Assembly: GCA_001802455.1 (NCBI GenBank)
Contig: MGXZ01000020.1
Span: 32,742 to 96,741 of the forward strand
Reading direction: 5' to 3'
DNA: 64,000 nt
DNA from: Gammaproteobacteria bacterium RIFCSPHIGHO2_12_FULL_39_24
GTDB lineage: Bacteria > Pseudomonadota > Gammaproteobacteria > Coxiellales > Coxiellaceae
Position numbers and translations under genes: made by a program. The first letter of the stretch is position 1, and the number at the start of each line of letters is the position of its first letter. Shown here piece by piece: positions 5,134-46,312 of this stretch. A model generated the notes under the pieces. The model saw only the letters and a list, made by a program, of their open reading frames with translations, had not been told where the DNA came from and searched no databases.

Positions 5134-5147
5134 TGTTCGTCCTTTAT

Positions 5148-25776: not shown

Positions 25777-25786
25777 ATTATTTTTC

Positions 25787-28324: not shown

Positions 28325-28344
28325 TATTTTTACCTTTACTTATT

Positions 28345-29388: not shown

Positions 29389-29399
29389 GCGGCATTCCT

Positions 29400-30428: not shown

Positions 30429-30451
30429 TTTTTCCTTTATTTACACCATTT

Positions 30452-31399: not shown

Positions 31400-32905
31400 T
31401 TACACAACCACTGCATTTGCTTCTTCAATCAATTGGCGACGCAATTTAATTTTCGTCATATCGGCAACATGATCATGCACGGCTTGTCCAAATTTTCTTT
31501 TCACCAACGCTAAATAGTTGGGATTAGTAAAATAACGATGGAAGGCGTTGTCACGGAATTTTAAAATTTCTGATGCAGGCAATGCTTCCGAACGCAATGG
31601 TTTGCTTTCGTATGCGTGTTGCGAATAACCAATCCACGAATCAGGCAATGCCCATTTTTTCTCGAGCGCGAGATCGTACAATTTCGATCCCGGATAAGCC
31701 ATCGCACAATAAAAATTAGCAAATTCACAATTCGCTTCAATGGCTAAATCCAATGTTTCATTCATCGATTCGGTCGTATCGTCGGGCAATCCAAAAATAT
31801 AATTACCAATAACATAAATACCAGCAGCTTGAATTTTGCGAACCACTTTGATGATGTCTTCACTGCCAAAACGACCTTTTTCAACACCATCACGCACATG
31901 CTTGCTGCCTGATTCGATACCGAGCGCCAACCAACGAATGCCGGCTGCACGCAATTTTTCTAAAAATTCATCTTTAACGGTATCCACGCGCGCATAGGCC
32001 CAAATATTTAAATCATAATTACGCTCAATTAATAAATCACAAATGCCAATGACATGATTTCTTTTTAAAACAAACATTTCATCAACAAATTTAATATTTT
32101 TAATGCCATACTCATTTACCAGCACATCAATTTCTTCCACCACTGTTTTGGGAGACCACATCCGATAAGAAGATTTTCCAAAGGGTGCATTAATGCAGCA
32201 AAATGTGCATTTGTAAGGACATCCTAAACTAGTATGGATCGATGCGTACGGTTGACGATCATTAATGTGATCGAAGCAATGCCAATTATGCGCGCGATAT
32301 TTATCCATTGGTAATAAATCCCACGCACCGCCCGGCATATCCGCATCTAAATTATCTAACAACAGTCCTTTTGGTGTAGACAACGCAACACCGCCGCGTT
32401 TGTACCACAAACTGGGCACCGCACTAAAATCAGTAGAGCCTGCTTTTAAAGCTTGAAATGTTTGCCAAATGGTTTGTGGACCTTCCTGACTGCACACAAA
32501 ATCAATTTGTTCTTCATTTAATGTTCTCGCCGGCAATGCAGCAGGATGCGTTCCCGTCATCATGATTTTGCATTGCGGCGATAATTGTTTTAGCGCAGTA
32601 CACGTTTCGCTGGCTGCCATCATGTTTTGTGTTGAAGCGGAAGGTTGAAAACCGTACACCACCATCACAATTAAAGTGGCATCATAATTATCCGCAATAT
32701 ACTTTGCTGTCATTGCAGGACTAAAATGACGAATTGGCGCATCAACAATATCGACTGTGCCGCCTTTTACGCGAACGTAAGTTGCAAACAGTGCTGCCAA
32801 AGAAGGGGGTTCGAACGCCGAAAATTCACTACTTAATTCTTGATATATCGCTGCTGGTGAGCCCGGATTAACTAACAGTACATCCACTTTTTGTTTGCCG
32901 CTCAT
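31400..32905 (-). CDS. B12-binding-domain radical SAM enzyme (class B, methyltransferase-like)
   Basis: 501-aa ORF with an N-terminal Rossmann-like cobalamin-binding region followed by GCPYKCTFCC (CxxxCxxC). Confidence 0.8.
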   Translation of the reverse strand: MSGKQKVDVLLVNPGSPAAIYQELSSEFSAFEPPSLAALFATYVRVKGGTVDIVDAPIRHFSPAMTAKYIADNYDATLIVMVVYGFQPSASTQNMMAASETCTALKQLSPQCKIMMTGTHPAALPARTLNEEQIDFVCSQEGPQTIWQTFQALKAGSTDFSAVPSLWYKRGGVALSTPKGLLLDNLDADMPGGAWDLLPMDKYRAHNWHCFDHINDRQPYASIHTSLGCPYKCTFCCINAPFGKSSYRMWSPKTVVEEIDVLVNEYGIKNIKFVDEMFVLKRNHVIGICDLLIERNYDLNIWAYARVDTVKDEFLEKLRAAGIRWLALGIESGSKHVRDGVEKGRFGSEDIIKVVRKIQAAGIYVIGNYIFGLPDDTTESMNETLDLAIEANCEFANFYCAMAYPGSKLYDLALEKKWALPDSWIGYSQHAYESKPLRSEALPASEILKFRDNAFHRYFTNPNYLALVKRKFGQAVHDHVADMTKIKLRRQLIEEANAVVV

Positions 32906-32921
32906 TTTCCTGTTCTCCTAA

Positions 32922-33866
32922 TCAAACATTTCCATAGACACTGTTTTTAATCATGGTAAATCCTTTTATTAATTCACGGATACCTTCTTCAATAGTGGTG
33001 TGCGGCTTAAATCCCGTTTTTTCTATTTTTTCATTCGAGACAATATAATTACGCTGATCAGGATCTTTACCCACCGTTGCTTCTACAAAAACAAAATCAG
33101 GAATAAATTGCTGTATTTTTTCACACAATTCTTTTTTGGATATATTGGCTTCTGATAAACCGACATTGTAAATCTGACCTTTCACGCGATCATGATTGGT
33201 AATCATGTGTAAAAATGCGCGCGCAACATCTCGAACATGCACATAGTTTCTTTTAAAGTGACCTTCAAACAACAAAACATATTTGTCGTACACAGCACGA
33301 TAAGTAAAATCGTTCACGAGCAAATCCGTACGCATGCGTGGCGAAATACCAAACACGGTTGCCAAACGCAAACTCACCGCATTCGGATGTTTCATTAATT
33401 CTTTTTCTACTTTTACTTTTTCTTGCGCGTAGTGCGAAATGGGATTGAGTGGAGATTCTTCTGTGCAAAAATTATTTTTATCACCAGAACCATAAGCACT
33501 GTTCGTTGTTGGCATATAAATTTTTTGCTCGCAGCTCATCAAATTGAGCATCATGATTATCGCATCGTAATTCACTGTCGTTGCTGTAATGGGATCTTGA
33601 TTGCACAATGGCGCACCGACCAACGCGGCCAACGGAATAACAATATCTGCTTTTTTTAAATAGGGTTGAATGGTTTCTTTAACACGAATATCGCCTTTAA
33701 CAATGTGAAAATTTTTGTAACGACACACAGCAGCAAGACTGTTTTGTTTGTACATGAAGTTGTCGATAACAGTGACTTCGTGTCCCAACTGTACTAATTC
33801 AGGCACTAAAGTTGAACCAATATAGCCTGCGCCACCGGTTACCACGATATTGTATTTTTTATCCAT
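32922..33866 (-). CDS. NAD-dependent nucleotide-sugar epimerase/reductase (extended SDR)
   Basis: 314-aa ORF with VVTGGAGYIGS and YAQEK. It is the first gene of the long minus-strand run 33866..~16817. Confidence 0.85.
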   Translation of the reverse strand: MDKKYNIVVTGGAGYIGSTLVPELVQLGHEVTVIDNFMYKQNSLAAVCRYKNFHIVKGDIRVKETIQPYLKKADIVIPLAALVGAPLCNQDPITATTVNYDAIIMMLNLMSCEQKIYMPTTNSAYGSGDKNNFCTEESPLNPISHYAQEKVKVEKELMKHPNAVSLRLATVFGISPRMRTDLLVNDFTYRAVYDKYVLLFEGHFKRNYVHVRDVARAFLHMITNHDRVKGQIYNVGLSEANISKKELCEKIQQFIPDFVFVEATVGKDPDQRNYIVSNEKIEKTGFKPHTTIEEGIRELIKGFTMIKNSVYGNV

Positions 33867-34024: not shown

Positions 34025-36151
34025 ATGGATACCGTCAACAAAAATATTTTCTGTAAACAGTATGATTTGTTTCTCAATATTACGCTCTTGCTGTTATTGC
34101 TTTTTCTCACCGTAAAAATGAATTGTATTCCGGCGCATGATACTTTTTGGCAATATCAGTCATTTTTTGTTTTTTACAACCATTTTTATTTTTACAAAAC
34201 CATACTACAGTGGTTCCCTTATGGCTCATATGGCATACCAGCAATGCCGTTCAACTTGATGTCAATAACACCCGCTCTTTACTTAATAACATTTGTTGGA
34301 AAAGTCTTGGATGTGACAAACACATTACTTTTATTTGAAATGGGTATTTATATTGAAATTTTTATTTATTTTATTGGATTATATTTTCTGTTGATAGAAC
34401 TCAATGTCAGCAAGTCGATTCGTTTTATTGTTTTACTCTCAGCGCTCTCAACTACCGCATGGCAATGGCAAATTGGATTTATGCTCAATATTTTTTACTT
34501 GATTCCACTTATTTTATTTTGTTTTATTAGATTGGATAAAACAAAACAAATAAGGTGGTTATATTATTCTGGTTATATTTTCTTAATTAACATTATCGGT
34601 ATAGCAACTTATTTAATACTCATTCAATTTTATACACTGTTTTTCTTTTTTATTGGGCTGTTAATCACAAATCGTGCTTTATCTAAAACAGTATTTTCAA
34701 CTGCTATTTTTAAAACGAAATATTTTGCGCTGCTCATTATAATGTTGATTCCTTTTATCACCATGGCGCATTTCATCACACATGATTTGATTGATCTGAC
34801 ACCCGGCAGAATACATGGTTACAATACAGTGGATACCTTTATCCATTATGCTTTTCAACCCATTGGTAATGTCGTTTATGGATATCTGACTGGCAATATT
34901 TCACTCTCAGATAATACGTACTATATCGGACTTTTTTTATTAGCCGCTTTTATTTACGGAATTTTTTATTGCGACAATAAATACTTTCGAGCATTTTTAT
35001 TACCAATCATTTTTTTAATATGGCTTTCGATATCCGGTATTTTTGCACACATTGTTTATTTTTTTCCAGGAATGAAATACTATCGCCACATTGATCTCAC
35101 ATTCGGCATCACCAGTTGTTTAATGATCATTAGCGCGGCGATTATCATACAAAATATTGTTAATGATCATACGCGTCGTTTTGTGTGTCCGACATTTTTT
35201 ATTATAATATTTACGTTAATGATTGTTGATTTTTTAGTAAGTCACTTTGTCCTACACACTATTCCAACATTTCATTCTACTGTCCCCATAAAAATACTCA
35301 CTACAAAATTTAATCTTTATCAGCTTTTTTTCTGTATGCGAATTATTTTTTATTCAACATTTATTTTTTTTGCAGCACGCTCGCAACGACCCATTTGGAT
35401 TATCTTATTTTCTATTGCTATTTTTGATGTGATGAGCTACCAATTTCTACAACTATACGATATCAAACACAACTATTTTACAGCGACAAAAACAATCACC
35501 ACGGCTGAGAAAATAAAATATCAACCCAAACGAAGCGATACTGTTAAAAACATGACGCCGAATCAACTGGAACGTTGGAACTTATCGACCAACATGGCTT
35601 CTGTTAAAAATTCGTTGGATGATAATTCTGCAGTTTATTCCCAATCTACTTATTTATTTGCTTCATCAGACCCGTGTCATCCCAAATACCGAGTTGATTT
35701 ATTATCACCATCGATTGCACCGCTTTTTCAACAAATCAATCATGGGCACGGAACTAACAACCTGCTCAATATCATTGGCTGCCACTCATCAAAATTATTT
35801 TTAAATGGACTGCCGCTGTTTACGTTTCAATTAAATCACTTTAGTGGTGACACCGTTTCTTTTACCGTTGAAAATAAAAGTGATCGATCTCAACTGTTAA
35901 CCTATGCTGATGCTCAATATCCAGGTTGGACGGTATTTATTGATGGGCAACAAAAAAAACTGATGACAACACAGCATGGATTCAAAGCAGTCGTACTGTC
36001 ACCGGGGGTGCATACAGTATATTTTGAATATGCAAATTTACTTTATTTAATTTTATCGTGGTTTTTAGCGGGCGCCTCATTGTTATTTTTTCTCTCACTC
36101 ATTATGTCGCTATCAGTGTTTTTATCAAAATTAATTCGCTCTGCCACATAA
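34025..36151 (+). CDS. YfhO-like polytopic GT-C glycosyltransferase (second copy)
   Basis: 708-aa ORF with many TM helices. A C-terminal soluble segment carries YPGWTVFIDGQQKKLMTTQHGFKAVVLSPGVHTVYFEY and is followed by a terminal TM helix. Confidence 0.65.
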   Translation: MDTVNKNIFCKQYDLFLNITLLLLLLFLTVKMNCIPAHDTFWQYQSFFVFYNHFYFYKTILQWFPYGSYGIPAMPFNLMSITPALYLITFVGKVLDVTNTLLLFEMGIYIEIFIYFIGLYFLLIELNVSKSIRFIVLLSALSTTAWQWQIGFMLNIFYLIPLILFCFIRLDKTKQIRWLYYSGYIFLINIIGIATYLILIQFYTLFFFFIGLLITNRALSKTVFSTAIFKTKYFALLIIMLIPFITMAHFITHDLIDLTPGRIHGYNTVDTFIHYAFQPIGNVVYGYLTGNISLSDNTYYIGLFLLAAFIYGIFYCDNKYFRAFLLPIIFLIWLSISGIFAHIVYFFPGMKYYRHIDLTFGITSCLMIISAAIIIQNIVNDHTRRFVCPTFFIIIFTLMIVDFLVSHFVLHTIPTFHSTVPIKILTTKFNLYQLFFCMRIIFYSTFIFFAARSQRPIWIILFSIAIFDVMSYQFLQLYDIKHNYFTATKTITTAEKIKYQPKRSDTVKNMTPNQLERWNLSTNMASVKNSLDDNSAVYSQSTYLFASSDPCHPKYRVDLLSPSIAPLFQQINHGHGTNNLLNIIGCHSSKLFLNGLPLFTFQLNHFSGDTVSFTVENKSDRSQLLTYADAQYPGWTVFIDGQQKKLMTTQHGFKAVVLSPGVHTVYFEYANLLYLILSWFLAGASLLFFLSLIMSLSVFLSKLIRSAT

Positions 36152-37053
36152 ACCAAAGGGCGCTTCAGAATTTGCGTGTGAATACTGGCAACATATTCAC
36201 CGATGATTCCAAGAAAAAATAACAATATTGAAAAAAAGAAAAATAACGCGATCATAATGGGTGCGATACCCGCATAAAAATGATTCCAAAAAATAAGTTT
36301 TAAAATAAATAATGCAGCAGCACAAAACAGGCTAAATACAGATAAAAAAAGTCCTAGCATCGTTGCTAATCGGATCGGCACTTTTGAGTGACTCGTAAAC
36401 CCCAGTATCGCCCAATCAAAAAGAATATAAAAATTGGCTTTCGAAGCACCGCGTTTTCTAAGTGGTTGCAAAAAAGGAATTTCTTTAATTGGATAACCAA
36501 TCTCTGAAATAATTCCTCTGAAATAGGGATACGAATCACCCAGCTCTTTGATCGCATGAATAACTGTTTTGTCATATAAACCAAAGCCGGTGAAATTTTT
36601 AACGAGTTTTATATTCGCAATTTTATTGGCAAGCCAGTAATATAATTTTCTCACTCTAGCCATCAAAAAACCTTCTTGGGTTTTTGCTTTTGTCGCAACA
36701 ACAATTTTCCAACCCGCCTCCCACGCTGTCAAAAAATCCTTAATCAGTTCTGGCGGATCTTGTAAATCACACACAATCGAAATAACCACATCCCCTTTTG
36801 CCTGAAAATAACCATACACAGGTGAACGCACAGGACCAAAGTTTCTAGTATTAACAATAATTTTCACATTATTATCTTGTGCTGCGATTCTTTTTAAAAT
36901 AGAAACGGTTTTATCTTCAGAACAGTTATCAATAAAAATATGCTCATAATGATATTGCGGTAATTCAGAAAATATTTTTTTCACCTGCTCATATAGATCA
37001 GCAGCATTTTCTTCTTCGTTATAACAAGGCGTCACCACAGAGATCAGCTTCAT
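36043..37053 (-). CDS. GT2 polyprenyl-phosphate glycosyltransferase (GtrB/ArnC/DPM1 type), second copy
   Basis: 336-aa ORF with VVTPCYNEEENA, VCDLQDPPELI and two C-terminal TM helices. Its hydrophilic tail overlaps the convergent GT-C gene by 109 nt. Confidence 0.82.
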   Translation of the reverse strand: MKLISVVTPCYNEEENAADLYEQVKKIFSELPQYHYEHIFIDNCSEDKTVSILKRIAAQDNNVKIIVNTRNFGPVRSPVYGYFQAKGDVVISIVCDLQDPPELIKDFLTAWEAGWKIVVATKAKTQEGFLMARVRKLYYWLANKIANIKLVKNFTGFGLYDKTVIHAIKELGDSYPYFRGIISEIGYPIKEIPFLQPLRKRGASKANFYILFDWAILGFTSHSKVPIRLATMLGLFLSVFSLFCAAALFILKLIFWNHFYAGIAPIMIALFFFFSILLFFLGIIGEYVASIHTQILKRPLVYVAERINFDKNTDSDIMSERKNNNEAPAKNHDKIK

Positions 37054-37409
37054 AATACGTTCCTAAAAACAAAATGTTTATTCGCATAATAACTCGCGAA
37101 CGCCAATAGCACGATCGCTATTCCGCCATCAAGATAAAGATCAGAAATAAAATCATGCAACAAATGTATTATTCCGATGTTCAAAAAATACAGCACTAAA
37201 TACAAAAAACAAAATCGTAAAAAAAAATTGTCATTTTTAAAAACAAGTCTGCTGATGGTAAAAAAGTTAAAAATCACACCCAGTACCGTTGAACCCAGCG
37301 CTGCGAAGAGATAGGAGATGTTCAAAAAAACAAGAGCGCTAAAGATTGCGTACCCAAAAAGCGTGTTCAGGCCACCCACTAACAAAAAACGAATAAATCG
37401 AGCATTCAT
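37050..37409 (-). CDS. GtrA-family membrane protein
   Basis: 119-aa ORF starting MNARFIRFLLVGGLNTLFGYAIF (typical GtrA N-terminus), with four hydrophobic helices. It has 4-nt overlaps on both sides. Confidence 0.75.
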   Translation of the reverse strand: MNARFIRFLLVGGLNTLFGYAIFSALVFLNISYLFAALGSTVLGVIFNFFTISRLVFKNDNFFLRFCFLYLVLYFLNIGIIHLLHDFISDLYLDGGIAIVLLAFASYYANKHFVFRNVL

Positions 37410-39184
37410 GCACTTTGTTTCATCACTAGAAAATAATTTTCAACCATCTGATAGTGTGGTTCATATAATGGTCGCCAACTCAGGTAACCATCTTCTTTTA
37501 TTTCACGATACAAGGCTTGCCTACTTATTTCTTTGAAATTTAATTTTTTATAAAGATCAATCGCGCGCGAATTGTTTCCCAACACTTTTAAATAATATTG
37601 CTGAATATCTAAAAATATTTTTCCCCAGCTCATCATCGCCTCACATGCGAAAAGCATAACACCTTTGTGATAATTTATTTTTCCACGCACAATGTTATCT
37701 ATTTCGCACGCCTTGTTTTTCCAATCAAAACGATTCAAACCAACATGGCCAACATATTCCCCATTTTTCTCTCTCACAAAAAACAAAACCCTGTCTTTTG
37801 CTTTCGTGAGTAAATGCTCAAGCCATCGCTTTGTGCTTTCTACCGTTACATCAAACTCATCTAAAAATCCGTGTTGATTTTTCTTTCTCCACTCCATCAA
37901 GAACAATATTTTTTGGTCATTCAATCTGTCATTCTGACAAATTGCTTCCAGCGTAAATAACGCGCCGTTACAATTAAAATCAATTAAATATCCATTTTCC
38001 TTAATATCCGCTATTTTTTTTATAACTTCTTCTTTATGAGACATCCAGCCTTGCAATGCATGTTGGGCAGATGCTTGCTTCATCACCAGTTGTTTGATTG
38101 CACCGCAAACATAATCAATTTCTTCTTCTGATAAATTATGCCCACTTGGTAAATTAATTCCACGAGAACCAACAAAATAAGCATTGGGATTATTTTCGCG
38201 CTGAAACATTGGCATCGAGCTAAGTGGATGAAATACCGGTCTTGAATCAACCCCTTTTTCTTTTAATTTCTGAATAAAATCATCTCTGGTTTCTGGGATA
38301 TCATTACTCAAAATAATAGATGTCATCCAAAAGATATTATTCACATTTTTCTTTTCAACATTTAATTTCAGTAACTCAATATCATTCAATCGACTTTGAT
38401 ACCATTTGAATATTTTTTTTTTCTGGGCAACAATTTCTTCAACACGCTCAAGTTGCGCCAAACCCAATGCCGCTTGCATATTTGACATTTTATATTTAAA
38501 TCCAATGCTGGTATTAAACAGCGGAACTTTGGGATCTCGACCATGGTCACCAAAATATTGCGCCTTTTCAAAAAGAACTTTGTTGTTCGTTACCAGCATT
38601 CCGCCTTCGCCAGTCACAATCGCTTTTGCACCTTGAAAACTAAACGCAGCCGCATCACCAAATGATCCGGTTCGTTTTCCATGATAAGTTGCACCAATAC
38701 TTTGCGCTGCGTCTTCGATCACAAATAAATTATGTTTTTTTGCGAGTGCCAACAGTGGTTCCATATCACAAGGATGTCCGTATAAATGTACTGGCATGAT
38801 TGCAATCGTTTTGGGAGTAATTAATTTTTCAACTGATTCTGGCAACATTGTCCACGATTCTAAATCGATATCACAAAAAACAGGTGTTGCACCAACATAT
38901 TTCACAACCGATGCTGTTGCCACCCACGTTATCTCGGGAACAATAATTTCATCACCTTCTTTTATGTTCAGTGCTTTTAAAATAAGATGCATTGCGCCTG
39001 TGCAACTGGAAGTGGCTAATGCATGACTAACATCCAAATATTTTGCAAATTGATTTTGGAATTTACTCAGATAGTTTGCCCAACTGTGATTCCATCCATT
39101 GGCAACTGCGTCAGCAACATAAGCAATTTCTTTATTTGTAATGCTGGGACCTGCAGTTAAAATAACATCACTTATTTTACTCAT
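37406..39184 (-). CDS. Bifunctional DegT/DnrJ/EryC1-type sugar aminotransferase fused to a C-terminal GNAT N-acetyltransferase domain
   Basis: 592-aa ORF. The N-terminal ~380 aa retain the PLP lysine (FSFQGAKAIVTGEGG). The C-terminal ~190 aa are GNAT-like (VGHVGLNRFDWKNKACEIDNIVRG...NSRAIDLYKKLNF). Confidence 0.8.
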   Translation of the reverse strand: MSKISDVILTAGPSITNKEIAYVADAVANGWNHSWANYLSKFQNQFAKYLDVSHALATSSCTGAMHLILKALNIKEGDEIIVPEITWVATASVVKYVGATPVFCDIDLESWTMLPESVEKLITPKTIAIMPVHLYGHPCDMEPLLALAKKHNLFVIEDAAQSIGATYHGKRTGSFGDAAAFSFQGAKAIVTGEGGMLVTNNKVLFEKAQYFGDHGRDPKVPLFNTSIGFKYKMSNMQAALGLAQLERVEEIVAQKKKIFKWYQSRLNDIELLKLNVEKKNVNNIFWMTSIILSNDIPETRDDFIQKLKEKGVDSRPVFHPLSSMPMFQRENNPNAYFVGSRGINLPSGHNLSEEEIDYVCGAIKQLVMKQASAQHALQGWMSHKEEVIKKIADIKENGYLIDFNCNGALFTLEAICQNDRLNDQKILFLMEWRKKNQHGFLDEFDVTVESTKRWLEHLLTKAKDRVLFFVREKNGEYVGHVGLNRFDWKNKACEIDNIVRGKINYHKGVMLFACEAMMSWGKIFLDIQQYYLKVLGNNSRAIDLYKKLNFKEISRQALYREIKEDGYLSWRPLYEPHYQMVENYFLVMKQSA

Positions 39185-39198
39185 CTTTATTTCCTACA

Positions 39199-40098
39199 TT
39201 AATTTAACGTTATTTCTATCGACAACAAATCTCTAAAATGATTTTGATCGCCCACTAACTTTGGAATAAAATCTCGAAAGCCCAATCGATGCACCAAGGG
39301 TATTTTCGTTATTTCGCCTTTGAAAAATAATTCATGTATTTTTTCAAGAATAGCGCTACCGAAACCACCATCCAACTGATGTTCTTCTACCGTAAATATT
39401 TTTTTGGATTTTTTAACAATACTACTTATTCCTTGAATATCCATCGGCTTGATGACGGGAACACTATATAAGCTAAAAGCGAGTTTTTTTTCTTTCAAGA
39501 TGGTGTAAACAAAATGGGTGATCGTGCCGGTCGTTAAAATAGATATGTCTGAATTATTTTCAATAATGGGTAACACTCTTTCCACAGACTTAATTTCACC
39601 ATCATGCAAAACATCTGAACCGCCTTTATCTAAGCGAATATAACAAGGGCAGGAATATAACATCGCATTTTCTAGCGATGCTTTGGTTTCTCTGATATCA
39701 GCGGGCGTGTAGACACGTATGTTTGGTAATGCACGCAATATTGCCATGTCTTCAATTCCATGGTGCGTATACCCAGCACTACCATAAGTAAATCCTGCGC
39801 CAATCGAAATAATTTTTACATTAGCGTTGTGGTAACACAAATCATTTCGAATTTGTTCTAAACACCTGAGTGATGGGAAATTGGCAATGGAGTAAACAAA
39901 AACCGTTTTTCCCGCAAGCGCCATTCCAGAAGCAACACCAATCATATTCTGTTCTGCGACACCGGCATTAATAAATTGATTTGGAAATTGTTCCTGAAAT
40001 TTTTCAAGAACAGAGTATCCCAAATCACCCGTCATCAAAATAAGATTAGGATTATTTTTTCCCATTTCTACTAATGTATTAATTAAAACGGTTCTCAC
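39199..40098 (-). CDS. Split transketolase, C-terminal (pyrimidine-binding) subunit
   Basis: 299-aa ORF with FINAGVAEQNMIGVASGMALAGK, typical of the transketolase central domain. Confidence 0.85.
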   Translation of the reverse strand: MRTVLINTLVEMGKNNPNLILMTGDLGYSVLEKFQEQFPNQFINAGVAEQNMIGVASGMALAGKTVFVYSIANFPSLRCLEQIRNDLCYHNANVKIISIGAGFTYGSAGYTHHGIEDMAILRALPNIRVYTPADIRETKASLENAMLYSCPCYIRLDKGGSDVLHDGEIKSVERVLPIIENNSDISILTTGTITHFVYTILKEKKLAFSLYSVPVIKPMDIQGISSIVKKSKKIFTVEEHQLDGGFGSAILEKIHELFFKGEITKIPLVHRLGFRDFIPKLVGDQNHFRDLLSIEITLN

Positions 40099-40104
40099 AT
40101 TTTT

Positions 40105-40911
40105 TTACCCCAATTCTTTTTGCGCTAAATTAAATTGCTCGGCATTAGGAGAGGCATAATGCCACTGTAATTTATTTTCCATAAAACCAACGCCCCTTCC
40201 CTTCACGGTATGCGCAATAATGATGGTTGGTTTATTCGATATATTTTTCTTATTCAATTGTGTTTTAATATCAGCATGATCATGACCATCTATTTCAACC
40301 ACATTCCAACCAAATGCTTTCCATTTATCTGAAAATGGTTCAAGACGCATAATTTCTTCCACCGTTCCTAGTCCTTGTAATTTGTTATAGTCAACTATCA
40401 TGTTTACATTATCTAACTGATGATGCGCACAAAATAATGCTGACTCCCATGTTGTTCCTTCATCACATTCTCCATCACTCAATAAAACAAAAACACGATT
40501 AGATTTTTTATCCAACTTAAATGCTTTTGCAATTCCACTCGCTACTGGTAATCCATGACCTAATGATCCCGTAGAAAGTTCCACACCTGGAACACCATTT
40601 GCGGTGACATGACCAAATAATCGAGAATCATTTTGACAATACGTTGTCAGCTCTTCTTCCGAAATAAATCCGTAAGCAGCCAATGTCGCATACATTGCTG
40701 CAACACCATGTCCTTTACTTAAAATAAAATAATCTCGTTCAACTGAACGGTAAGTCGCTGGAGAAATACGAAGCACATCCGAATACAAAACGGCTAAAAT
40801 ATCAATCACAGAAAATGATGAACCGATATGCGAACTCTTCGATTCCGTAATCATTTTTAAAACTAGTTTTCTAATTTTAAGTGCGATAAATATAGAATCT
40901 TTTTTATTCAT
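40105..40911 (-). CDS. Split transketolase, N-terminal (ThDP-binding) subunit
   Basis: 268-aa ORF with SHIGSSFSVIDILAVLY, SKGHGVAAMYA and LSDGECDEGTTWESALFCAHHQLDNV. Confidence 0.85.
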   Translation of the reverse strand: MNKKDSIFIALKIRKLVLKMITESKSSHIGSSFSVIDILAVLYSDVLRISPATYRSVERDYFILSKGHGVAAMYATLAAYGFISEEELTTYCQNDSRLFGHVTANGVPGVELSTGSLGHGLPVASGIAKAFKLDKKSNRVFVLLSDGECDEGTTWESALFCAHHQLDNVNMIVDYNKLQGLGTVEEIMRLEPFSDKWKAFGWNVVEIDGHDHADIKTQLNKKNISNKPTIIIAHTVKGRGVGFMENKLQWHYASPNAEQFNLAQKELG

Positions 40912-40915
40912 ATTG

Positions 40916-42139
40916 TTATCGACTTTTTAAAAACAATGAAACAGATTCATGCATATGATCCAGCATAGCTTGTGTCAACCCATGATGACACGCTAATAAA
41001 ATACCACCTCGCATCACTTGATCCGCATTCGGATAATGATCTCGTTTTTTGCATACCATATTTTTGAATCCAGGTTGTCTTAAAATATTGCCTGTGAAAA
41101 CAGTACGCGTTTGTATATTTCTTTTTTCTAAAAATAGTTGTAATTCTGTTCGAGTAAACGGTGCATCATCTTTTACCATCACTGGAAAAGCTAACCAACC
41201 TGTGCGCGAATACTGGAGTTGTTTTGGTAAAATAAAATAGGATTCATGTTGTTTGAAAAAATTTTTTTGTTTTTCAAACCAATGAATGCGTGCATCAATA
41301 TTTTTTTGTAAATTATCTAATTGCACCAAACCAAAAGCGGCACACATTTCATTTGCTTCTAAATTATAACCTAACGCCTCAAAAACAAATTTTGCATCGT
41401 AGCGCATCCCCTCAACATCAACACTAAAGCGATTCTCAATCGACTCAGATTCAACAAATAAAGAAGAACTGCGTCCCCAACTTCTTAGTAATTTCGCACG
41501 ATTTGATAAACGGTCATCATTCACACACAACATACCGCCATTACCGCCACAACTAATCACATGCGATCCATAGAAGCTGGTCGTGGAGATATCAACAAAT
41601 TGTCCTGTAGTGTGATTATCAATCGTTGCGCTCAATGTGTCTGCTGAATCTTCAATCAGTATTAAATTATATTTATCTGCAATTGTTTTTATTTTTTTCC
41701 AATCCGGTAAATTACCCAATAAATTCGGGATCATCATCGCTTTTGTTTTTGAAGTAATCATCGATTCAATTTGATCAACATCGATATTAAATGTATCAGG
41801 TTCTACATCGATAAACACAGGCACTAAACCATTACGCACTAATGGCGCAATAGTTGTTGAAAAAGTTAAAACAGGTGTGATAATTTCAGAACCTGCTGGC
41901 AAATCTAGAATTTCCACCGCGAGATAATTCGCTGAGGAACCTGAGTTCACCATAATACCGTGCTTTTTTGCAAACAACGTTGCGATACGCGCTTCCATCT
42001 CATATACATGCTTTCCCATTTGCGTTGATGTATTTAACACGTGCATCACCGCATTTTTTTCTGCTTCACCCCAAACAGCTTTTCCGTATGGCACATGAAT
42101 GAATTGCTCTTGCATTTTACGCTCAACCACGGTTGTCAT
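40916..42139 (-). CDS. PLP/PMP-dependent NDP-4-keto-6-deoxyhexose 3-dehydratase, E1 (RfbH/DdhC)/SpnQ-like
   Basis: 407-aa DegT-fold ORF. Its active-site context TSFYGSHVISCGGNGG has His at the position of the Schiff-base Lys. It lies directly downstream of rfbF-rfbG. Confidence 0.7.
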   Translation of the reverse strand: MTTVVERKMQEQFIHVPYGKAVWGEAEKNAVMHVLNTSTQMGKHVYEMEARIATLFAKKHGIMVNSGSSANYLAVEILDLPAGSEIITPVLTFSTTIAPLVRNGLVPVFIDVEPDTFNIDVDQIESMITSKTKAMMIPNLLGNLPDWKKIKTIADKYNLILIEDSADTLSATIDNHTTGQFVDISTTSFYGSHVISCGGNGGMLCVNDDRLSNRAKLLRSWGRSSSLFVESESIENRFSVDVEGMRYDAKFVFEALGYNLEANEMCAAFGLVQLDNLQKNIDARIHWFEKQKNFFKQHESYFILPKQLQYSRTGWLAFPVMVKDDAPFTRTELQLFLEKRNIQTRTVFTGNILRQPGFKNMVCKKRDHYPNADQVMRGGILLACHHGLTQAMLDHMHESVSLFLKSR

Positions 42140-42142
42140 TGC

Positions 42143-43213
42143 TCACTCCTGCGTTACTAATTTTTCGTATTGTTTGATTTGCCCTATTGTTATTTCGCGC
42201 ATGTTTTTTTTATTCATCCACGCTTGATACCAAGTCGAAATCCACGCAATAGTCGCATCTATGTCTAACTGCGATTTCCACTTTAATTCGTTCATCGCTT
42301 TTGTTGTATCTAATTTCAAATAATGCGCTTCATGTAAATTTTCTTTATCTTGCTCAATAAGATAACCCCTGTTTTTTTCTGGCCACACAGAAAACATTTT
42401 TTTAATTATTTTTTCCACGCTCATTGCATCTTGTACAAAAGGTCCAAAATTCCATGCGCCACTTAATTTATCTGGATGATGAAATAATTTTTCAGCTAAC
42501 AATAAATATCCAAACAAAGGTTCCAATACGTGTTGCCAAGGACGAATTGCATTTGGATTTCGAATTACAACTGATCTGTTTTCAATAATACTGTTTATGA
42601 TATCGGGAATAAGGCGATCTTGAGACCAATCACCACCACCAATCACATTACCTGCTCGTGCAGAAGCCAATCCTTTTTTTAATTTTTGAAAATAGGATTT
42701 TTGATAGGCCGTTGTCACTAATTCAGAACATGCTTTACTACTACTGTAGGGATCCTCTCCGCCGACATTTTCATTTTCACGATACCCCCACATCCATTCT
42801 TTATTCTCGTAACATTTATCCGTTGTCACATTCACAACAGCCTTCACTGATTCGGTGGTTTTTGCAGCTTCTAATACATACGCTGTTCCCATCACATTGG
42901 TAGAATAAGTTTCAATAGGATTGTGATACGAATACCGAACAAGCGGTTGCGCAGCCATGTGGATAATAATTTCTGGTTCGAAATCATGAATGATTTTTTT
43001 GATCTGCGAAAATTCACGCACATCTGCAATACAATTTTTCATGTGCTGTGCAACATCAGCAAGTGAAAATAAATTGGGTGTTGTTGTAGGTTCAAGCGAG
43101 ATGCCACACAAATGCGCATTCAGTTGCTGCAACCACAGTGATAACCAAGATCCTTTAAATCCAGTGTGACCCGTGATTAATACACGGCGATTTTTCCAAA
43201 ACAATGCATTCAC
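42143..43213 (-). CDS. rfbG: CDP-glucose 4,6-dehydratase
   Basis: 356-aa ORF with FWKNRRVLITGHTGFKGSWLSLWL, VTTDKCYEN and YSSSKAC. Confidence 0.88.
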   Translation of the reverse strand: MNALFWKNRRVLITGHTGFKGSWLSLWLQQLNAHLCGISLEPTTTPNLFSLADVAQHMKNCIADVREFSQIKKIIHDFEPEIIIHMAAQPLVRYSYHNPIETYSTNVMGTAYVLEAAKTTESVKAVVNVTTDKCYENKEWMWGYRENENVGGEDPYSSSKACSELVTTAYQKSYFQKLKKGLASARAGNVIGGGDWSQDRLIPDIINSIIENRSVVIRNPNAIRPWQHVLEPLFGYLLLAEKLFHHPDKLSGAWNFGPFVQDAMSVEKIIKKMFSVWPEKNRGYLIEQDKENLHEAHYLKLDTTKAMNELKWKSQLDIDATIAWISTWYQAWMNKKNMREITIGQIKQYEKLVTQE

Positions 43214-43233
43214 ATTCAGCTACTCACGTTGGA

Positions 43234-44043
43234 CTACATCTCCATAAAATCCTTTTCTATAATAGATGAATGATTACCCCACACTTTCCACGGCGCCTTT
43301 TGTTTATTCCACAATGATTCCAATAAAATTTTCTCGCGCAATGTGTCCATCGGCTGCCAAAATCCTTCATGAAAATACGCTTTCATTTGACCCGCTTCAG
43401 CCAACCGACGCATTGGCTCTTGCTCCCACACTGTCGTGTCATCCTTGATATAGTCAATTACTTTAGGAGATAAAATAAAAAATCCGCCATTAATCCAACC
43501 ACCATTTCCCTGGGGTTTTTCTTGAAACCCAACTACGGAAGTTCCTTCTACTTCCAAAGAACCAAAACGAGCGGCTGGTTTAACAGCGCTCACTGTTGCA
43601 AGCTTACCATGCGCTTGATGAAATCGAATTAAATCTTGAATATCAATATCACTCACGCCGTCACCATAAGTGAAACAAAAATCGTCTTCGCCTAAATAAG
43701 ATTGAATGCGTCTTAAACGCCCACCAGTCATTGTTGCTTCACCCGTATCAACTAATGTCACTTTCCATGGTTCGGCATTTTTCTGATGTACATGCATTTG
43801 ATTATGTTCCATGTCAAAAGTAACATCTGACATATGCAAAAAATAATTCGCGAAATATTCTTTAATGACATAACTTTTATAACCAAGACAAATAATAAAA
43901 TCACGAATGCCATATACAGAATAAATTTTCATGATATGCCACAGAATTGGTTTTCCACCGATTTCAACCATAGGCTTTGGTTTGTGATCCGTTTCTTCAC
44001 TAATACGAGTGCCGTACCCACCCGCTAGAATGACCACTTTCAT
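43234..44043 (-). CDS. rfbF: Glucose-1-phosphate cytidylyltransferase
   Basis: [42 protein letters not shown] prefer the ATG at 44043 over the track start at 44067. Confidence 0.88.
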
Positions 44044-44090
44044 GAAAAAACTTCCTATGAAAATCACAACCCATTGAGAAATAAGCAGGC

Positions 44091-44106: not shown

Positions 44107-44898
44107 TCACCACCATACAAGCGCAAGCAATCGACGCTTCACCTTTCTGAAAAAGGTGCCGTCCTGTTCTAAAAATTGTTCGGTATTTTTATTTAAACTG
44201 GTTGGCGTGCGGCGATTTTGGCTGAGTTTTTTATTAATTGGATAAATAGGTGTTAACGCACCACATTTTTCCATAAAAATACCATCCGCATGTGATTCTG
44301 TATCTTTACCTTCTGGCCACCATTCACAATTTGAAATCTTCTCCACTAAACTTCGACGATGACAAAATTGCAAATAATCCACTTTGTTATCCAACCGAAC
44401 ACCACCACAACATTTTCCCGCTTTTTTCAGCGCTAATCGTTGACCAAAAATTTTTGTTTTTCCATCAGGATAAACCACGCTATAATCTTGTGAGGCATAC
44501 ATCGCTTCTACGGTTGGATTAGATTGCGCAAATTCTACCAATGTTGCAAAGGCATTCGGATAAAAAATATCATCATCAGAAAGATAAACAATTAAATCAC
44601 CTTTCACTTTTCCGTTACGAAAACATTCATTAAAACACCATGGCGCCATCGCTTTTGTTTTTCGAATTATTGCTGTTTCTGTTGAACGAATTAATTGAAT
44701 ACGTGAATCGGTTATCCAAGAAAACTGATGGTAATATCCTTGATCGTACAGCACGCCACTATCAACCAAAAGACATTCCCAATTTTGATATGTTTGATTT
44801 AATAAACTCTGCACGGCTTCATGGCAAATATCAGGTTTATTGTGACTGACTAAAATGCAACTGACTAACATAAATAATTTTCCAACGCTATCTCCCAA
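44107..44898 (-). CDS. GT2-family glycosyltransferase
   Basis: 263-aa ORF with ILVSHNKPDICHEAVQSLLNQTYQNWECLLVDSG and LSDDD. An alternative start lies at 44871. Confidence 0.8.
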   Translation of the reverse strand: MGDSVGKLFMLVSCILVSHNKPDICHEAVQSLLNQTYQNWECLLVDSGVLYDQGYYHQFSWITDSRIQLIRSTETAIIRKTKAMAPWCFNECFRNGKVKGDLIVYLSDDDIFYPNAFATLVEFAQSNPTVEAMYASQDYSVVYPDGKTKIFGQRLALKKAGKCCGGVRLDNKVDYLQFCHRRSLVEKISNCEWWPEGKDTESHADGIFMEKCGALTPIYPINKKLSQNRRTPTSLNKNTEQFLEQDGTFFRKVKRRLLALVWW

Positions 44899-45728
44899 TG
44901 CGGAATTTCTCCTATCACTTCACTGATTTTTTTATTACTTAAAACACTATACGGTGGTCGCATCGCGATGGTTGGAAATTGCGATGAAGCAATAGGATCA
45001 ACGACCGCAGTAATCTTGGTTTTCTCGATAATTTTTTTTGCAAATTCATACCACGTTGCTTGACCCGAATTCACAACATGATACGTTCCTGCAACACCTT
45101 GTGATTTTAAAAAACAAAATAAAATACGGGCGACTTCCGCCGTTGAAGTGGGTGACATGACTTGATCATTCACAACCGATATCTTTCCTTTTTCTTTCGC
45201 AAGACGAATCATAGTCTCAACAAAATTACCGCCTTTTCCGCTTGCACCGGCAATACCAAATAATGACGCAACGCGAAAAATAATGGTGTCATGATGATTG
45301 ATCAATGCTAATTTTTCACCCATTAATTTTGATGCACCATATACATTTAATGGCGCAGGATTATTTTTTTCAGTCAGTGGTTCACGCTCTTCCCCACCGC
45401 CAAAAACATAATCTGTACTCACATGCACAAACCGTGTTTTTTTTTCGTGACACACTTTCGCCATTTCACGTACCGCAAATGCATTAATTAAAAATGCTTT
45501 ATCGGCATGCGATTCCACCTCATCGGTTTTGTGATAACCAGTGCAATTAATTAATATGTCAAATGAATGTGATGTTAATTTTGCTTGTATTTCTGCTAGA
45601 TTGCTGATATCTAATTCAGCGCGCGTCCAATTTGTCAGCGAAAAATCTGGTTTATTTTTTTCAAATTCACGACAAATATCCGTTCCCAATTGTCCATTTG
45701 CACCCAGTAATAATAAATGCATCATCAA
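44865..45728 (-). CDS. rfbD: dTDP-4-dehydrorhamnose reductase
   Basis: 287-aa ORF with LLLGANGQLG, STDYVFGG and YGASKLMGE. Confidence 0.85.
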   Translation of the reverse strand: MMMHLLLLGANGQLGTDICREFEKNKPDFSLTNWTRAELDISNLAEIQAKLTSHSFDILINCTGYHKTDEVESHADKAFLINAFAVREMAKVCHEKKTRFVHVSTDYVFGGGEEREPLTEKNNPAPLNVYGASKLMGEKLALINHHDTIIFRVASLFGIAGASGKGGNFVETMIRLAKEKGKISVVNDQVMSPTSTAEVARILFCFLKSQGVAGTYHVVNSGQATWYEFAKKIIEKTKITAVVDPIASSQFPTIAMRPPYSVLSNKKISEVIGEIPHWEIALENYLC

Positions 45729-45731
45729 ACC

Positions 45732-46283: not shown

Positions 46284-46312
46284 GTGCTCACCTCTTCTCA
46301 CTTACCGCTTTA

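Follow-up and report, generated by a model that had tools for sequence, protein, structure and literature searches.

The eight-gene run at 36043-44067 on the minus strand of the window appears to encode all the steps that lead from glucose-1-phosphate to a 3,6-dideoxyhexose that is branched at C-4, N-acetylated and lipid-linked, and that would decorate a periplasmic glycan acceptor. We place the probability of this reading at about 0.58. The window is the whole 64,000-nt stretch of DNA that was analysed, from an uncultured groundwater bacterium, and all coordinates are positions in it. An earlier sequence-only reading had suggested a yersiniose-like branched, aminated and acetylated sugar delivered by a lipid route. 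Comparative genomics supports the outline of that suggestion, through the replacement of the transketolase by a YerE-like enzyme in related loci, the aminotransferase-GNAT fusion or SDR that accompanies it, the co-conservation of GT2 and GtrA, and the transketolase subfamily. The class of the dehydratase, the label of the convergent membrane protein, the boundaries of the operon and the novelty of branching by a transketolase are corrected below.

The run encodes, in order, RfbF, RfbG, a DegT-fold dehydratase, the two subunits of a transketolase-like ThDP enzyme (TK-N and TK-C), an aminotransferase-GNAT fusion, GtrA and GT2, and the genes follow one another as the proposed reactions do. From RfbF on, the intergenic gaps are 20, 3, 4, 6 and 14 nt, followed by two 4-nt overlaps. 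The ORF layout and the family profile scores match the earlier description of eight minus-strand genes with gaps of 20 nt or less or overlaps. The arrangement is not due to chance, because related gene orders recur across independent genomes. The boundaries of the operon are likely wider than proposed. Directly upstream of RfbF lie another GT2 (44107-44898), an RmlD-like gene (44865-45728) and RmlC (45732-46301), all assigned by Pfam, all on the minus strand and likely in the same transcription unit. These genes are also close-packed, with a 39-63-nt gap between RfbF and GT2, a 34-nt overlap between GT2 and RmlD, and a 3-nt gap between RmlD and RmlC. Since close packing extends through 44107-46301, the transcription unit is probably wider than the eight genes and begins upstream of 44067.

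The first two steps are assigned by family membership. The glucose-1-phosphate cytidylyltransferase RfbF/DdhA (43234-44067, minus strand) scores 462 bits against the TIGR02623 equivalog (cutoff 300), matches Pfam NTP_transferase, and would produce CDP-glucose from glucose-1-phosphate. Its true start is likely near 44043; the gene call of identical metagenome contigs starts at M9 (~44043) and gives 269 aa. The CDP-glucose 4,6-dehydratase RfbG/DdhB (42143-43213, minus strand; TIGR02622 equivalog, 505 bits, cutoff 278) would convert CDP-glucose to CDP-4-keto-6-deoxy-D-glucose. The third enzyme is an E1/ColD-like PMP/PLP-dependent 3-dehydratase of the DegT fold (E1L; 40916-42139, minus strand; Pfam DegT above cutoff), with His193 of its TTSFYGSH motif at the PLP-lysine position. 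It is predicted to remove the 3-OH, yielding CDP-4-keto-3,6-dideoxy-D-glucose.

The assignment of this dehydratase to the E1 type is not borne out. Its closest PDB relative is Yersinia E1 (3bcx, 220 bits, against 163 bits for ColD), but E1 carries four [2Fe-2S] cysteines. In the alignment, C193, C251, C253 and C261 of E1 correspond to A166, S225, L227 and I234, so that all four are gone, and the Cys-less segment is invariant across the dehydratase family (64-84% identity). The E1 type is rejected on this family-wide loss. Against the RfbH equivalog the protein scores 320 bits, under the cutoff of 423. The earlier observation that the window holds no E3 (AscD/RfbI-type) gene is confirmed by motif and profile scans. 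Fer2/FNR-type Pfam domains are absent from the annotated window genes, and ORFs with a plant-type 2Fe-2S motif are absent from the window and from 80 genome loci related to it by the dehydratase, save one spurious antisense ORF. No E3-like gene was found near any of these 80 loci. The lack of both an Fe-S cluster and an E3 partner makes a reductase-free, ColD-type mechanism most likely. The missing E3 is then explained and is not a gap in the pathway, because a dehydratase without the Fe-S cysteines needs none. As in ColD, a PMP adduct would be dehydrated and the enamine hydrolysed to ketone and ammonia, with glutamate restoring PMP. Counting against this reading, Cys197 and Cys205 are invariant in the family and Cys384 is nearly so, and they may bind a metal.

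The split transketolase consists of TK-N, the N-terminal PP-domain subunit (40105-40911, minus strand; Pfam Transketolase_N, 145 bits), and TK-C, the C-terminal subunit with Pyr and C domains (39199-40098, minus strand; Pfam Transket_pyr and Transketolase_C). The best PDB match of TK-N is the split transketolase of C. hydrogenoformans (6yak, 247 bits), and TK-C scores 161 bits against 6yaj. As in the split transketolase of known structure, the subunits would form an alpha2beta2 tetramer and generate a ThDP-bound two-carbon carbanion, whose attack on the C-4 ketone would yield a 4-C-(hydroxyacetyl) tertiary alcohol. TK-N keeps the equivalents of H26, H66, H100 and H261 of E. coli transketolase (EcTK) and the Asp of the GDG motif. 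In TK-C, by human transketolase numbering, H416 is replaced by Gly, D424 by Ala and R474 by Lys, and the equivalent of EcTK H473 is retained. This signature (H416G, D424A, R474K) occurs in 150 of the 150 top library representatives. The loss of acceptor and phosphate-binding residues, with cofactor and donor histidines kept, suggests a remodelled acceptor pocket. Asp424 and His416, whose equivalents are lost here, also provide contacts for canonical ketose-phosphate donors, and this counts against the preferred reading. The subfamily has epimerase/dehydratases, DegT, Bac_transf, GT2 and TylF genes as neighbours, whereas canonical split transketolases neighbour transaldolase and PCNA. By these sequence comparisons, the enzyme belongs to a large uncharacterised subfamily set in sugar-nucleotide clusters and not in pentose-phosphate contexts.

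Also counting against the preferred reading, we know of no transketolase with demonstrated activity on a ketone acceptor, and the proposals made for Streptomyces are still hypothetical. The earlier statement that no characterised pathway uses a two-subunit transketolase for sugar branching stands to the extent that such a role has never been demonstrated. The idea itself is not unprecedented, because split-gene transketolases have been proposed to install the hydroxyacetyl branch on keto sugars of miharamycin and amipurimycin (PMC12247030).

The same 80 loci link the ThDP enzyme to its neighbours; 44 have a ThDP enzyme and 36 do not. An AHAS/YerE-type enzyme adjoins RfbF-RfbG-dehydratase in 42 of the 80, and in two others (L012 and L060) a split transketolase occupies this position. 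Direct pairing of dehydratase and split transketolase is limited to these two loci and the window, which counts against the preferred reading. Another lineage has RfbF-RfbG-GT2 and large multi-TM proteins adjoining TK-N/TK-C, an independent recurrence. In Legionellales loci, a YerE-like enzyme replaces the transketolase behind the RfbF-RfbG-dehydratase core, and after it comes an SDR or an aminotransferase-GNAT fusion, plus GT2 and GtrA. An SDR or fusion is present in 33/44 loci with a ThDP enzyme and 3/36 without, and a GT2 of at least 50% identity in 32/44 and 5/36 (Fisher p=1e-7, phylogeny ignored); such counts are confounded by the ancestry that the Legionellales loci share. For YerE, the acceptor of activated acetaldehyde is CDP-3,6-dideoxy-4-keto-D-glucose (PMC12247030). 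In yersiniose A synthesis, YerE with pyruvate plays the role proposed here for the transketolase-like enzyme. Yersiniose A occurs in the LPS of L. micdadei and L. maceachernii, according to the title of a paper cited in PMC7867332 (its reference 59).

The position shared with pyruvate-using YerE-like enzymes raises an alternative in which branching proceeds as proposed with a DXS-like enzyme and pyruvate, giving an acetyl branch and finally a 4-C-(1-acetamidoethyl)-3,6-dideoxyhexose. The scores of TK-C differ little between the DXS and transketolase models (130 and 132 bits), and another module of the window contains a PDH-E1-like, pyruvate-type enzyme. We consider this version unlikely, given that each of the 48 members of the subfamily that were examined has the EcTK His100 equivalent; His100 contacts the hydroxymethyl group of the donor, and DXS has Phe in its place (PMC7661550). 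The retention of His100 makes dihydroxyethyl-ThDP the probable intermediate, formed from a ketol, for example hydroxypyruvate or a ketose phosphate.

The hydroxyacetyl ketone would then be the substrate of the fusion protein (37406-39184, minus strand), a DegT-family sugar aminotransferase (residues ~1-370; Pfam DegT, 383 bits; catalytic Lys within SFQGAK) joined to a GNAT N-acetyltransferase (~440-590; Acetyltransf_3, 36 bits). Amination of the side-chain ketone and acetylation by the fused GNAT would give CDP-3,6-dideoxy-4-C-(1-acetamido-2-hydroxyethyl)-hexose. In the PDB, the best match of the aminotransferase domain is GDP-perosamine synthase (3bn1, 312 bits), a C-4 aminotransferase of a 4-keto-6-deoxy sugar, and so the domain could instead act on C-4 of the unbranched ketone. 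The GT2 would then load a 4-acetamido-3,4,6-trideoxyhexose, and the transketolase would do housekeeping pentose-phosphate work, as split transketolases do in many organisms (PMC7661550), or supply sugar-phosphate precursors. This is improbable: the transketolase has lost the equivalents of His416 and Asp424, groups with sugar-cluster and not transaldolase-linked enzymes, and sits between dehydratase and aminotransferase with gaps of 4-14 nt. Two loci (L018 and L020), ordered GtrA-RfbF-RfbG-dehydratase-(GNAT/AT fusion)-GT2-YerE-like, have ~600-aa fusions that are 49-50% identical to the window protein in the aminotransferase part and 31-32% in the GNAT part. By sequence, they follow the window's logic with another ThDP enzyme. 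In other sister loci a ketoreductase (YerF-type SDR) stands where the window has the fusion. Such alternation beside a ThDP enzyme is hard to explain unless the ThDP and tailoring enzymes share a substrate.

For the preferred branched sugar, family membership supports delivery by a lipid carrier. The GT2 (36043-37053, minus strand; Pfam Glycos_transf_2) is of the polyprenyl-phosphate GtrB/ArnC/DPMS type, with CDLQDPPE and two C-terminal hydrophobic/TM helices, and would load the sugar onto undecaprenyl phosphate. It matches Synechocystis GtrB (5ekp, 169 bits, residues 4-305), ArnC (100 bits) and DPMS (55 bits) in the PDB, and NCBIfam PgfS (185 bits) and ArnC (114 bits) under their equivalog cutoffs. 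We know of no GtrB/ArnC-type enzyme that uses a CDP-sugar, and we infer this specificity here. GtrA (37050-37409, minus strand; Pfam GtrA_DPMS_TM, 57.8 bits, cutoff 26.1; 44% identical to GtrA in a Legionella drozanskii locus) is a small membrane protein and candidate flippase that would help to flip the lipid-linked sugar. A 708-aa polytopic membrane protein on the plus strand (34025-36151) may then pass it to O-antigen or core in the periplasm. Its gene converges on the end of the run as described earlier, sharing 109 nt in antisense with the GT2 3' end. The YfhO-like GT-C label is weak, since only the C-terminus matches Pfam YfhO (26.9 bits, cutoff 28.5); one homolog (P0243) passes at 29.0 bits. 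Only 4 homologs exist among 5.8 billion proteins, and the AF2 model (pLDDT 45) is unusable.

The resemblance of the GT2 to the UDP-sugar users ArnC and PgfS, and the other GT2 just upstream, would fit two unrelated adjacent pathways, with RfbF to TK-C serving a cytoplasmic glycosyltransferase and the fusion, GtrA and GT2 acting Arn-like on a UDP-sugar. We regard this as very unlikely, because Pfam and NCBIfam profiles find in the run no dehydratase or oxidase making a keto-UDP-sugar, and because GT2 and GtrA show a statistical association with loci that have both dehydratase and ThDP enzyme. GT2 genes 55-63% identical to that of the window occur in 37 of the 80 loci, and GT2 and GtrA are interleaved with the genes of these enzymes in several orders, such as dehydratase-GT2-SDR-GtrA-YerE-like in Tatlockia and Legionella. 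Conservation of GT2 and GtrA goes together with that of the ThDP enzyme (32/44 loci against 5/36). Least probable of all is an unbranched sugar in which the transketolase supplies an activated glycolyl unit and the GNAT N-glycolylates a 4-amino sugar: split transketolases reportedly deliver glycolaldehyde-derived units to carriers in naphthyridinomycin (NapB/NapD) and quinocarcin (QncN/L) biosynthesis and the aminotransferase does carry a fused GNAT, but the same profiles find no lipoyl/E2-like or ACP gene in the run, and the positional match to branching enzymes of the YerE-like kind and the alternation with an SDR favour C-C bond formation on the sugar.

The branched-sugar route has a parallel within the window itself. 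A downstream module contains a ColD-like dehydratase, a two-subunit PDH-E1-like ThDP enzyme, a GT2, GtrA and a weakly YfhO-like protein. This module is an internal replicate of the design of the run and supports its reading as a pathway to a lipid-linked branched sugar.

The eight minus-strand genes at 36043-44067 probably encode a full pathway from CDP-glucose to a C-branched amino sugar. According to this reading, to which we give a probability of about 0.58, the branch is a hydroxyacetyl unit that is aminated and acetylated, and the sugar is delivered by a lipid carrier. The ORF map and family matches bear out the gene run as the sequence-only reading had described it: successive gaps of 20, 3, 4, 6 and 14 nt give way to two 4-nt overlaps. 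The glucose-1-phosphate cytidylyltransferase RfbF/DdhA (43234-44067, minus strand) is a full-length match to the TIGR02623 equivalog (462 bits, cutoff 300), and the CDP-glucose 4,6-dehydratase RfbG/DdhB (42143-43213, minus strand) matches TIGR02622 with 505 bits against 278. The chemical steps from the third enzyme, a dehydratase, onward are what we infer from sequence. Comparative genomics supports the order and logic of the pathway first proposed; its E1-type dehydratase did not survive, its GT-C assignment is weak, and branching by split transketolases had already been put forward elsewhere.

The dehydratase (40916-42139) is a DegT-fold protein with the motif TTSFYGSH, in which histidine occupies the PLP-lysine position of aminotransferases. 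This residue, His193, aligns with E1 His220, and equivalents of E1 Tyr217 and Asp194 are present too. Among solved structures it is closest to Yersinia E1 (220 bits), with ColD second (163 bits). Opposite E1 Cys193, Cys251, Cys253 and Cys261, which we take to be its [2Fe-2S] ligands (motif C-X57-C-X-C-X7-C) and which are reportedly the cluster positions of Agnihotri et al. 2004, the alignment places Ala166, Ser225, Leu227 and Ile234. The segment that replaces the cysteines, RSWGRSSSL..ESE..ENRF, is invariant in 22 members of the dehydratase family, which is 64-84% identical across Legionellales, Coxiellaceae, Thiotrichales, Bacteroidota and Chlamydiae. The four-Cys motif is present in E1 and SpnQ and absent from ColD, which has His for the PLP lysine and neither an Fe-S cluster nor a reductase partner (PMC8987622). 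Against the NCBIfam RfbH equivalog the window dehydratase scores 320.5 bits, under the cutoff of 423. Across the 64-kb window, and up to 10 kb from the gene in 80 species-representative genomes, a regular expression for the plant-type 2Fe-2S motif of E3, unvalidated on a real E3, picked out no real candidate ORF, and the Pfam annotation of the window genes contains no Fer2 or FNR-type domain. The earlier observation that the window has no E3 is thus upheld. With the four cysteines missing, the RfbH cutoff missed and no E3 nearby, the E1-type assignment has to be abandoned; in sequence the protein remains nearest to E1, but the Fe-S and reductase criteria place it with ColD.

Because both the Fe-S cysteines and E3 are absent, a ColD-type mechanism is the simplest reading by analogy. 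Glutamate would be consumed to regenerate PMP, ammonia released and a CDP-4-keto-3,6-dideoxy sugar formed with no reductase, which would resolve the puzzle of the missing E3. RfbF and RfbG each lie beside the dehydratase in 65 of 80 genome loci that encode the family, pointing to a CDP-sugar rather than a GDP-sugar as the substrate. ColD itself is a GDP-4-keto-6-deoxymannose 3-dehydratase; it shares with the window enzyme the His-for-Lys substitution, the lack of an Fe-S motif and the lack of a detected reductase, whereas the window enzyme is nearer E1 in sequence and sits among CDP-glucose genes. A literature search for an already described Fe-S-less CDP 3-dehydratase found none. Within the family Cys197 and Cys205 are invariant and Cys384 nearly so, none of them at an E1 cluster position.

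The evidence for what follows dehydration comes from the same 80 loci, which were scored by tblastn with the window proteins and the proteins of a Legionella drozanskii locus as queries. An AHAS-family, YerE-like ThDP enzyme with Pfam TPP_enzyme_N/M/C domains lies within 10 kb of the dehydratase in 42 of the 80, usually a few genes away. In two others (L012 and L060) a split transketolase directly follows the dehydratase, as in the window, and is itself followed by an SDR. Two loci from Coxiellaceae-like MAGs, L018 and L020, have the order GtrA, RfbF, RfbG, dehydratase, GNAT-aminotransferase fusion, GT2 and YerE-like enzyme. When the ThDP enzyme (YerE-like or split transketolase) is crossed with the tailoring enzyme (SDR or aminotransferase plus GNAT), sister loci fill three of the four combinations, and the window is the fourth. 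A tailoring enzyme is present in 33 of 44 loci with a ThDP enzyme and in 3 of 36 without one, and a GT2 at least 50% identical to that of the window in 32 of 44 and 5 of 36, respectively (Fisher p=1e-7 for the GT2), both comparisons being uncorrected for shared ancestry. That the split transketolase appears in the YerE position across loci speaks more strongly than any other evidence for the transketolase as the branching enzyme.

Legionella supplies a link to a known structure. The LPS of two species, L. micdadei and L. maceachernii, is reported to contain yersiniose A (Sonesson and Jantzen 1992, as cited in reference 59 of PMC7867332). Loci of L. drozanskii (L006/L017), L. nautarum (L019) and Tatlockia MAGs (L022/L024/L025/L039) encode RfbF, the Fe-S-less dehydratase, GT2, SDR, GtrA and a YerE-like enzyme; in L. 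drozanskii and L. nautarum the YerE-like gene is followed by large membrane proteins, one with DUF7024. This gene order predicts that yersiniose A of L. micdadei would be made without E3 and added periplasmically from an Und-P donor.

The sixth gene product of the run is a fusion of a DegT sugar aminotransferase (Pfam 383 bits), with its catalytic lysine in SFQGAK, and a GNAT domain at residues 445-551 (Acetyltransf_3 36.0 bits against 25.4; Acetyltransf_1 27.6 against 20.7). The aminotransferase may act directly at C-4, as its best match, GDP-perosamine synthase (312 bits), would suggest. The alternation of this enzyme with an SDR downstream of the ThDP enzyme fits amination of the side-chain ketone better, and that ketone is the only carbonyl left after branching. 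On the preferred reading, the ketone of the hydroxyacetyl branch would be transaminated and then acetylated by the fusion protein to give a 4-C-(1-acetamido-2-hydroxyethyl)-3,6-dideoxyhexose. A literature search for a branched LPS sugar made by a ThDP enzyme plus an aminotransferase found none. The corresponding fusions of L018 (11241-13046) and L020 (11221-13020) are about 600 aa long, 49-50% identical to the window protein in the aminotransferase part and 31-32% in the GNAT part. Positions of their tblastn matches put the GNAT domain N-terminal, opposite to the window order. This suggests that the fusions arose independently and that the two activities are tightly coupled in function.

Of solved structures, the split transketolase of Carboxydothermus hydrogenoformans, PDB 6yak/6yaj, is nearest to both split transketolase subunits of the run, TK-N (40105-40911) and TK-C (39199-40098), with 247 and 161 bits. 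Their Pfam architecture is Transketolase_N plus Transket_pyr/Transketolase_C instead of the three-domain TPP_enzyme_N/M/C of YerE-type proteins, so the pair lies outside the YerE family and is probably a functional analogue of its members. The ThDP/metal site and the equivalents of E. coli transketolase (EcTK) H26, H66, H100, H261 and H473 are all kept, and the ThDP-binding and donor-site histidines are those of the C. hydrogenoformans enzyme. The acceptor side is different. The equivalents of human transketolase R318 and S345 are kept in the alignment, but Gly, Ala and Lys replace H416, D424 and R474, in contrast to C. hydrogenoformans; canonical split transketolases in the same alignment read S-H-E/G-D-H-R at these positions. 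In human transketolase H416 serves phosphate binding and D424 the acceptor C2-OH.

YerE takes activated acetaldehyde from pyruvate and attaches it to CDP-3,6-dideoxy-4-keto-D-glucose, an established reaction (PMC12247030). The same pathway with acetyl in place of hydroxyacetyl as the branch is an unlikely variant for the window. Transketolases have His, and DXS has Phe, at the position of EcTK H100, which discriminates hydroxypyruvate-type from pyruvate donors (PMC7661550); retention of the His here favours a ketol donor and hence, as far as the residue can predict, the hydroxyacetyl branch. An ordinary pentose-phosphate transketolase is rejected on the changed residues at H416, D424 and R474 and on the sugar-nucleotide neighbourhood.

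Relatives of both subunits show that the window pair belongs to a large group. Among 80 metagenome loci encoding the nearest relatives of TK-N, active-site signature and gene neighbourhood go together, and the loci divide cleanly. Neighbours of the canonical S-H-E/G-D-H-R group are dominated by transaldolase, PCNA and formyltransferase, and transaldolase occurs beside this group only. The group with x-G-x-(L/Q/A)-H-(K/R) has mainly NDP-sugar epimerase/dehydratases, Polysacc_synt_2, DegT, Bac_transf, GT2, TylF and nucleotidyltransferases as neighbours; the window, too, differs from canonical split transketolases in its context of sugar-nucleotide genes rather than transaldolase. A whole-library phmmer search with TK-C returned 1551 representatives at E<=1e-30. 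The signature was read in the best 150 of the 1551, and all have it: 148 of the 150 carry Gly at position 416, and none carries Asp at 424. In eight loci of another lineage, on freshwater or soil metagenome contigs (L103, L109, L110, L112, L118, L128, L133 and L148), the transketolase pair is divergent from RfbF-RfbG and accompanied by a two-TM GT2 (about 40% identical) and by 660-684-aa proteins with 10-13 TM segments. A 3-dehydratase is absent from these contigs, so the transketolase there would act on CDP-4-keto-6-deoxyglucose. In these loci the association of a CDP-sugar, a split transketolase and a polyprenyl-phosphate route recurs independently.

Transketolase branching of sugars is not without precedent. 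Split-gene transketolases have been proposed, and never demonstrated in vitro, for miharamycin, amipurimycin and 13 other Streptomyces clusters (PMC12247030, section 2.3); the proposals in that review concern Streptomycetes only. Compared by description only, the miharamycin and amipurimycin enzymes resemble the window pair in being two-subunit transketolases of sugar-modifying clusters, with a proposed transfer of a hydroxyacetyl unit onto a keto sugar that forms a tertiary alcohol. They belong to actinomycete nucleoside-antibiotic clusters, whereas the window has a Gram-negative surface-glycan locus and a CDP-sugar.

Delivery by a lipid carrier is suggested by the end of the run. Synechocystis GtrB 5ekp (169 bits, residues 4-305) and ArnC (100 bits, residues 2-307) match the GT2 along its whole length. 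The GT2 has DLQDPPE and two C-terminal hydrophobic helices, and falls under the equivalog cutoffs for ArnC and PgfS. It is of the GtrB/ArnC/DPMS type, with a predicted place in the CDP pathway from synteny. The preceding protein matches Pfam GtrA_DPMS_TM with 57.8 bits against a cutoff of 26.1. The candidate GT-C, a 708-aa polytopic protein (34025-36151, plus strand), does converge on the run as first noted, but its family assignment is weak, since it matches Pfam YfhO at the C-terminus only, with 26.9 bits under the 28.5 cutoff. A homolog, P0243, scores 29.0 bits against YfhO, over threshold. A search of 5.8 billion proteins turned up just four homologues of the 708-aa protein, 25-29% identical to it, which makes it almost an orphan. 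Its AF2 model, built from a 5-sequence alignment, is unusable (mean pLDDT 45) and shows a mostly helical protein, then a C-terminal beta-domain and a final helix.

The polyprenyl-phosphate GT2, the GtrA-family protein and the large polytopic candidate GT-C resemble the GtrA/GtrB/Gtr*, ArnC/ArnT and CsbB/GtcA/YfhO systems. Donors of known three-component systems are UDP-Glc, UDP-Gal, UDP-GlcNAc, UDP-Ara4FN and PRPP-derived pentoses (PMC11127046, PMC5836110), and no example of a CDP-derived or branched sugar in these systems was found in the literature. The window differs from them in its predicted donor, a CDP-linked branched amino sugar, and in its nearly orphan GT-C candidate.

The locus contains what can be regarded as an internal replicate, a second module at 16817-33866, downstream of the run and likewise on the minus strand. 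It encodes GmhA-like, HddA-like and HddC/MurU-like proteins for heptose activation and a transaldolase-like protein (19521-22981), several SDRs and a GFO/IDH/MocA oxidoreductase, GtrA (25787-26161), a GT2 (26158-27138) that is 25% identical to the run GT2, and a second His-for-Lys DegT dehydratase (27116-28324; FSTFFSHHISTMEGG). The latter is 32% identical to the first dehydratase and, with its RAHGWTRDLP motif, the more ColD-like of the two. Further upstream are PDH-E1 beta-like (28345-29388, 288 bits) and alpha-like (29400-30428, 298 bits) ThDP subunits, an Fcl-like epimerase/reductase (30452-31399), a B12-radical SAM enzyme (31400-32905) and an SDR (32922-33866). A 906-aa protein (16817-19537) with a weak C-terminal YfhO match (21 bits) is a candidate GT-C for the second sugar, and pairwise comparison with the 708-aa protein gave no significant similarity. 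Thus, a dehydratase without Fe-S, a two-subunit ThDP enzyme, a GT2, a GtrA and a large membrane protein occur together twice, with different ThDP families, which supports the functional coupling of these genes. Heteromeric ThDP enzymes of the two-subunit alpha-keto-acid-dehydrogenase type, such as those of aldgamycin, avilamycin and kibdelomycin (KbDH-alpha/beta), attach an acyl group to keto sugars (PMC12247030), and the second module has such a pair; these enzymes are PDH-E1-like and use pyruvate, whereas that of the first module is transketolase-like. The product of the second module looks like a nucleotide-heptose-derived 3-deoxy C-branched sugar, possibly C-methylated, that would also be delivered by a lipid carrier.

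The eight-gene packing stands, but not its proposed limits. On the upstream side, a GT2, an RmlD-like gene and RmlC extend the tight packing to 46301, so the transcription unit is probably longer than first stated. A scan of 33.5-49 kb for sigma-70 promoters and terminators gave sites fewer than or equal to those in shuffles and does not inform the operon boundaries. The convergent GT2 and 708-aa YfhO-like genes overlap by 109 nt (36043-36151), the last 36 codons of each, leaving no room for an intergenic terminator between them. Horizontal transfer or an artefact is rejected, as the run has a GC content of 0.35-0.38, like the remainder of the locus. The run sequence is also found on at least five metagenome contigs from ENA and JGI samples among the matches listed. 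Upstream of RmlC, a DAO-family FAD oxidoreductase (47556-48767, minus strand) overlaps an SDR epimerase/dehydratase (46531-47559, minus strand) by 4 nt, an unusual pairing for a sugar locus.

The left end of the glycan locus (222-7507, minus strand) encodes an amine-oxidase-like flavoprotein and an SDR, together with a 476-aa UbiA-family prenyltransferase, a GHMP kinase, a nucleotidyltransferase, and an ABC-transporter ATPase whose 270-aa partner is without a Pfam match. The UbiA-family protein may be a sign of a third route to a lipid-linked sugar, one of the polyprenyl-phosphopentose type (cf. PMC11127046), and the ABC pair suggests ABC-transporter-dependent O-antigen export. Two plus-strand ORFs with no Pfam match, of 299 aa (7750-8649) and 1368 aa (8565-12671), lie mid-locus on the opposite strand, in a stretch with a GC content of 0.43 against about 0.37. 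An IF-2B/MtnA-like isomerase (12673-13686, minus strand) is translationally coupled to a class II aldolase (13683-14336, minus strand) inside the glycan locus; the pair might supply a sugar-phosphate or ketol precursor.

The proposed window pathway has its nearest known counterpart in yersiniose A synthesis of Yersinia pseudotuberculosis (DdhA-D, YerE, YerF). Both start from CDP-glucose and proceed through 4,6-dehydration and 3-deoxygenation, followed by ThDP-dependent two-carbon addition at the C-4 ketone of CDP-4-keto-3,6-dideoxy-D-glucose and processing of the side-chain ketone (PMC12247030). The likeness extends to the sister loci, where YerE-like enzymes and an SDR accompany the window-type dehydratase. 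In contrast to the Yersinia pathway, the window has a 3-dehydratase with neither Fe-S cluster nor E3, and a two-subunit transketolase-like enzyme where YerE is an AHAS-family flavoprotein. For its side-chain ketone, amination and acetylation are predicted instead of reduction, and for its delivery, a path by Und-P, GtrA and GT-C rather than a cytoplasmic O-unit glycosyltransferase. The pathway would be a combination of yersiniose-type branching and three-component glycosylation, both known in kind, and not a new category.

A broader joint reading is more tentative, and we hold it as possible rather than probable. It would have a large unrecognised split-transketolase subfamily, of at least 150 clusters at 50% identity with Gly and a non-Asp residue at the human 416 and 424 positions, C-branch nucleotide-activated keto sugars in surface glycans. 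The product here would be the undescribed 4-C-(1-acetamido-2-hydroxyethyl) sugar, made with an E1-like dehydratase that needs neither Fe-S cluster nor reductase and exported as a single sugar on Und-P, and the yersiniose A of Legionella/Tatlockia would likewise be added periplasmically by GtrA/GT2/GT-C. ThDP biocatalysis has sought transketolase-type tertiary alcohols on sugars without a working enzyme (PMC12247030). If correct, the finding on the eight-gene run would give this reaction its first physiological context outside actinomycete antibiotics and offer hundreds of sequences as candidates, recognisable by their active-site signature. It would also provide a reductase-independent route to CDP-3,6-dideoxyhexoses and extend three-component periplasmic glycosylation to CDP-derived, C-branched sugars. 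Its predictions would be testable in the culturable L. drozanskii, L. nautarum and Tatlockia (L. micdadei) group, which carries the YerE version of the locus. Since branched sugars are strong serological determinants, it would also bear on antigenic diversity in Legionellales and Coxiellaceae.
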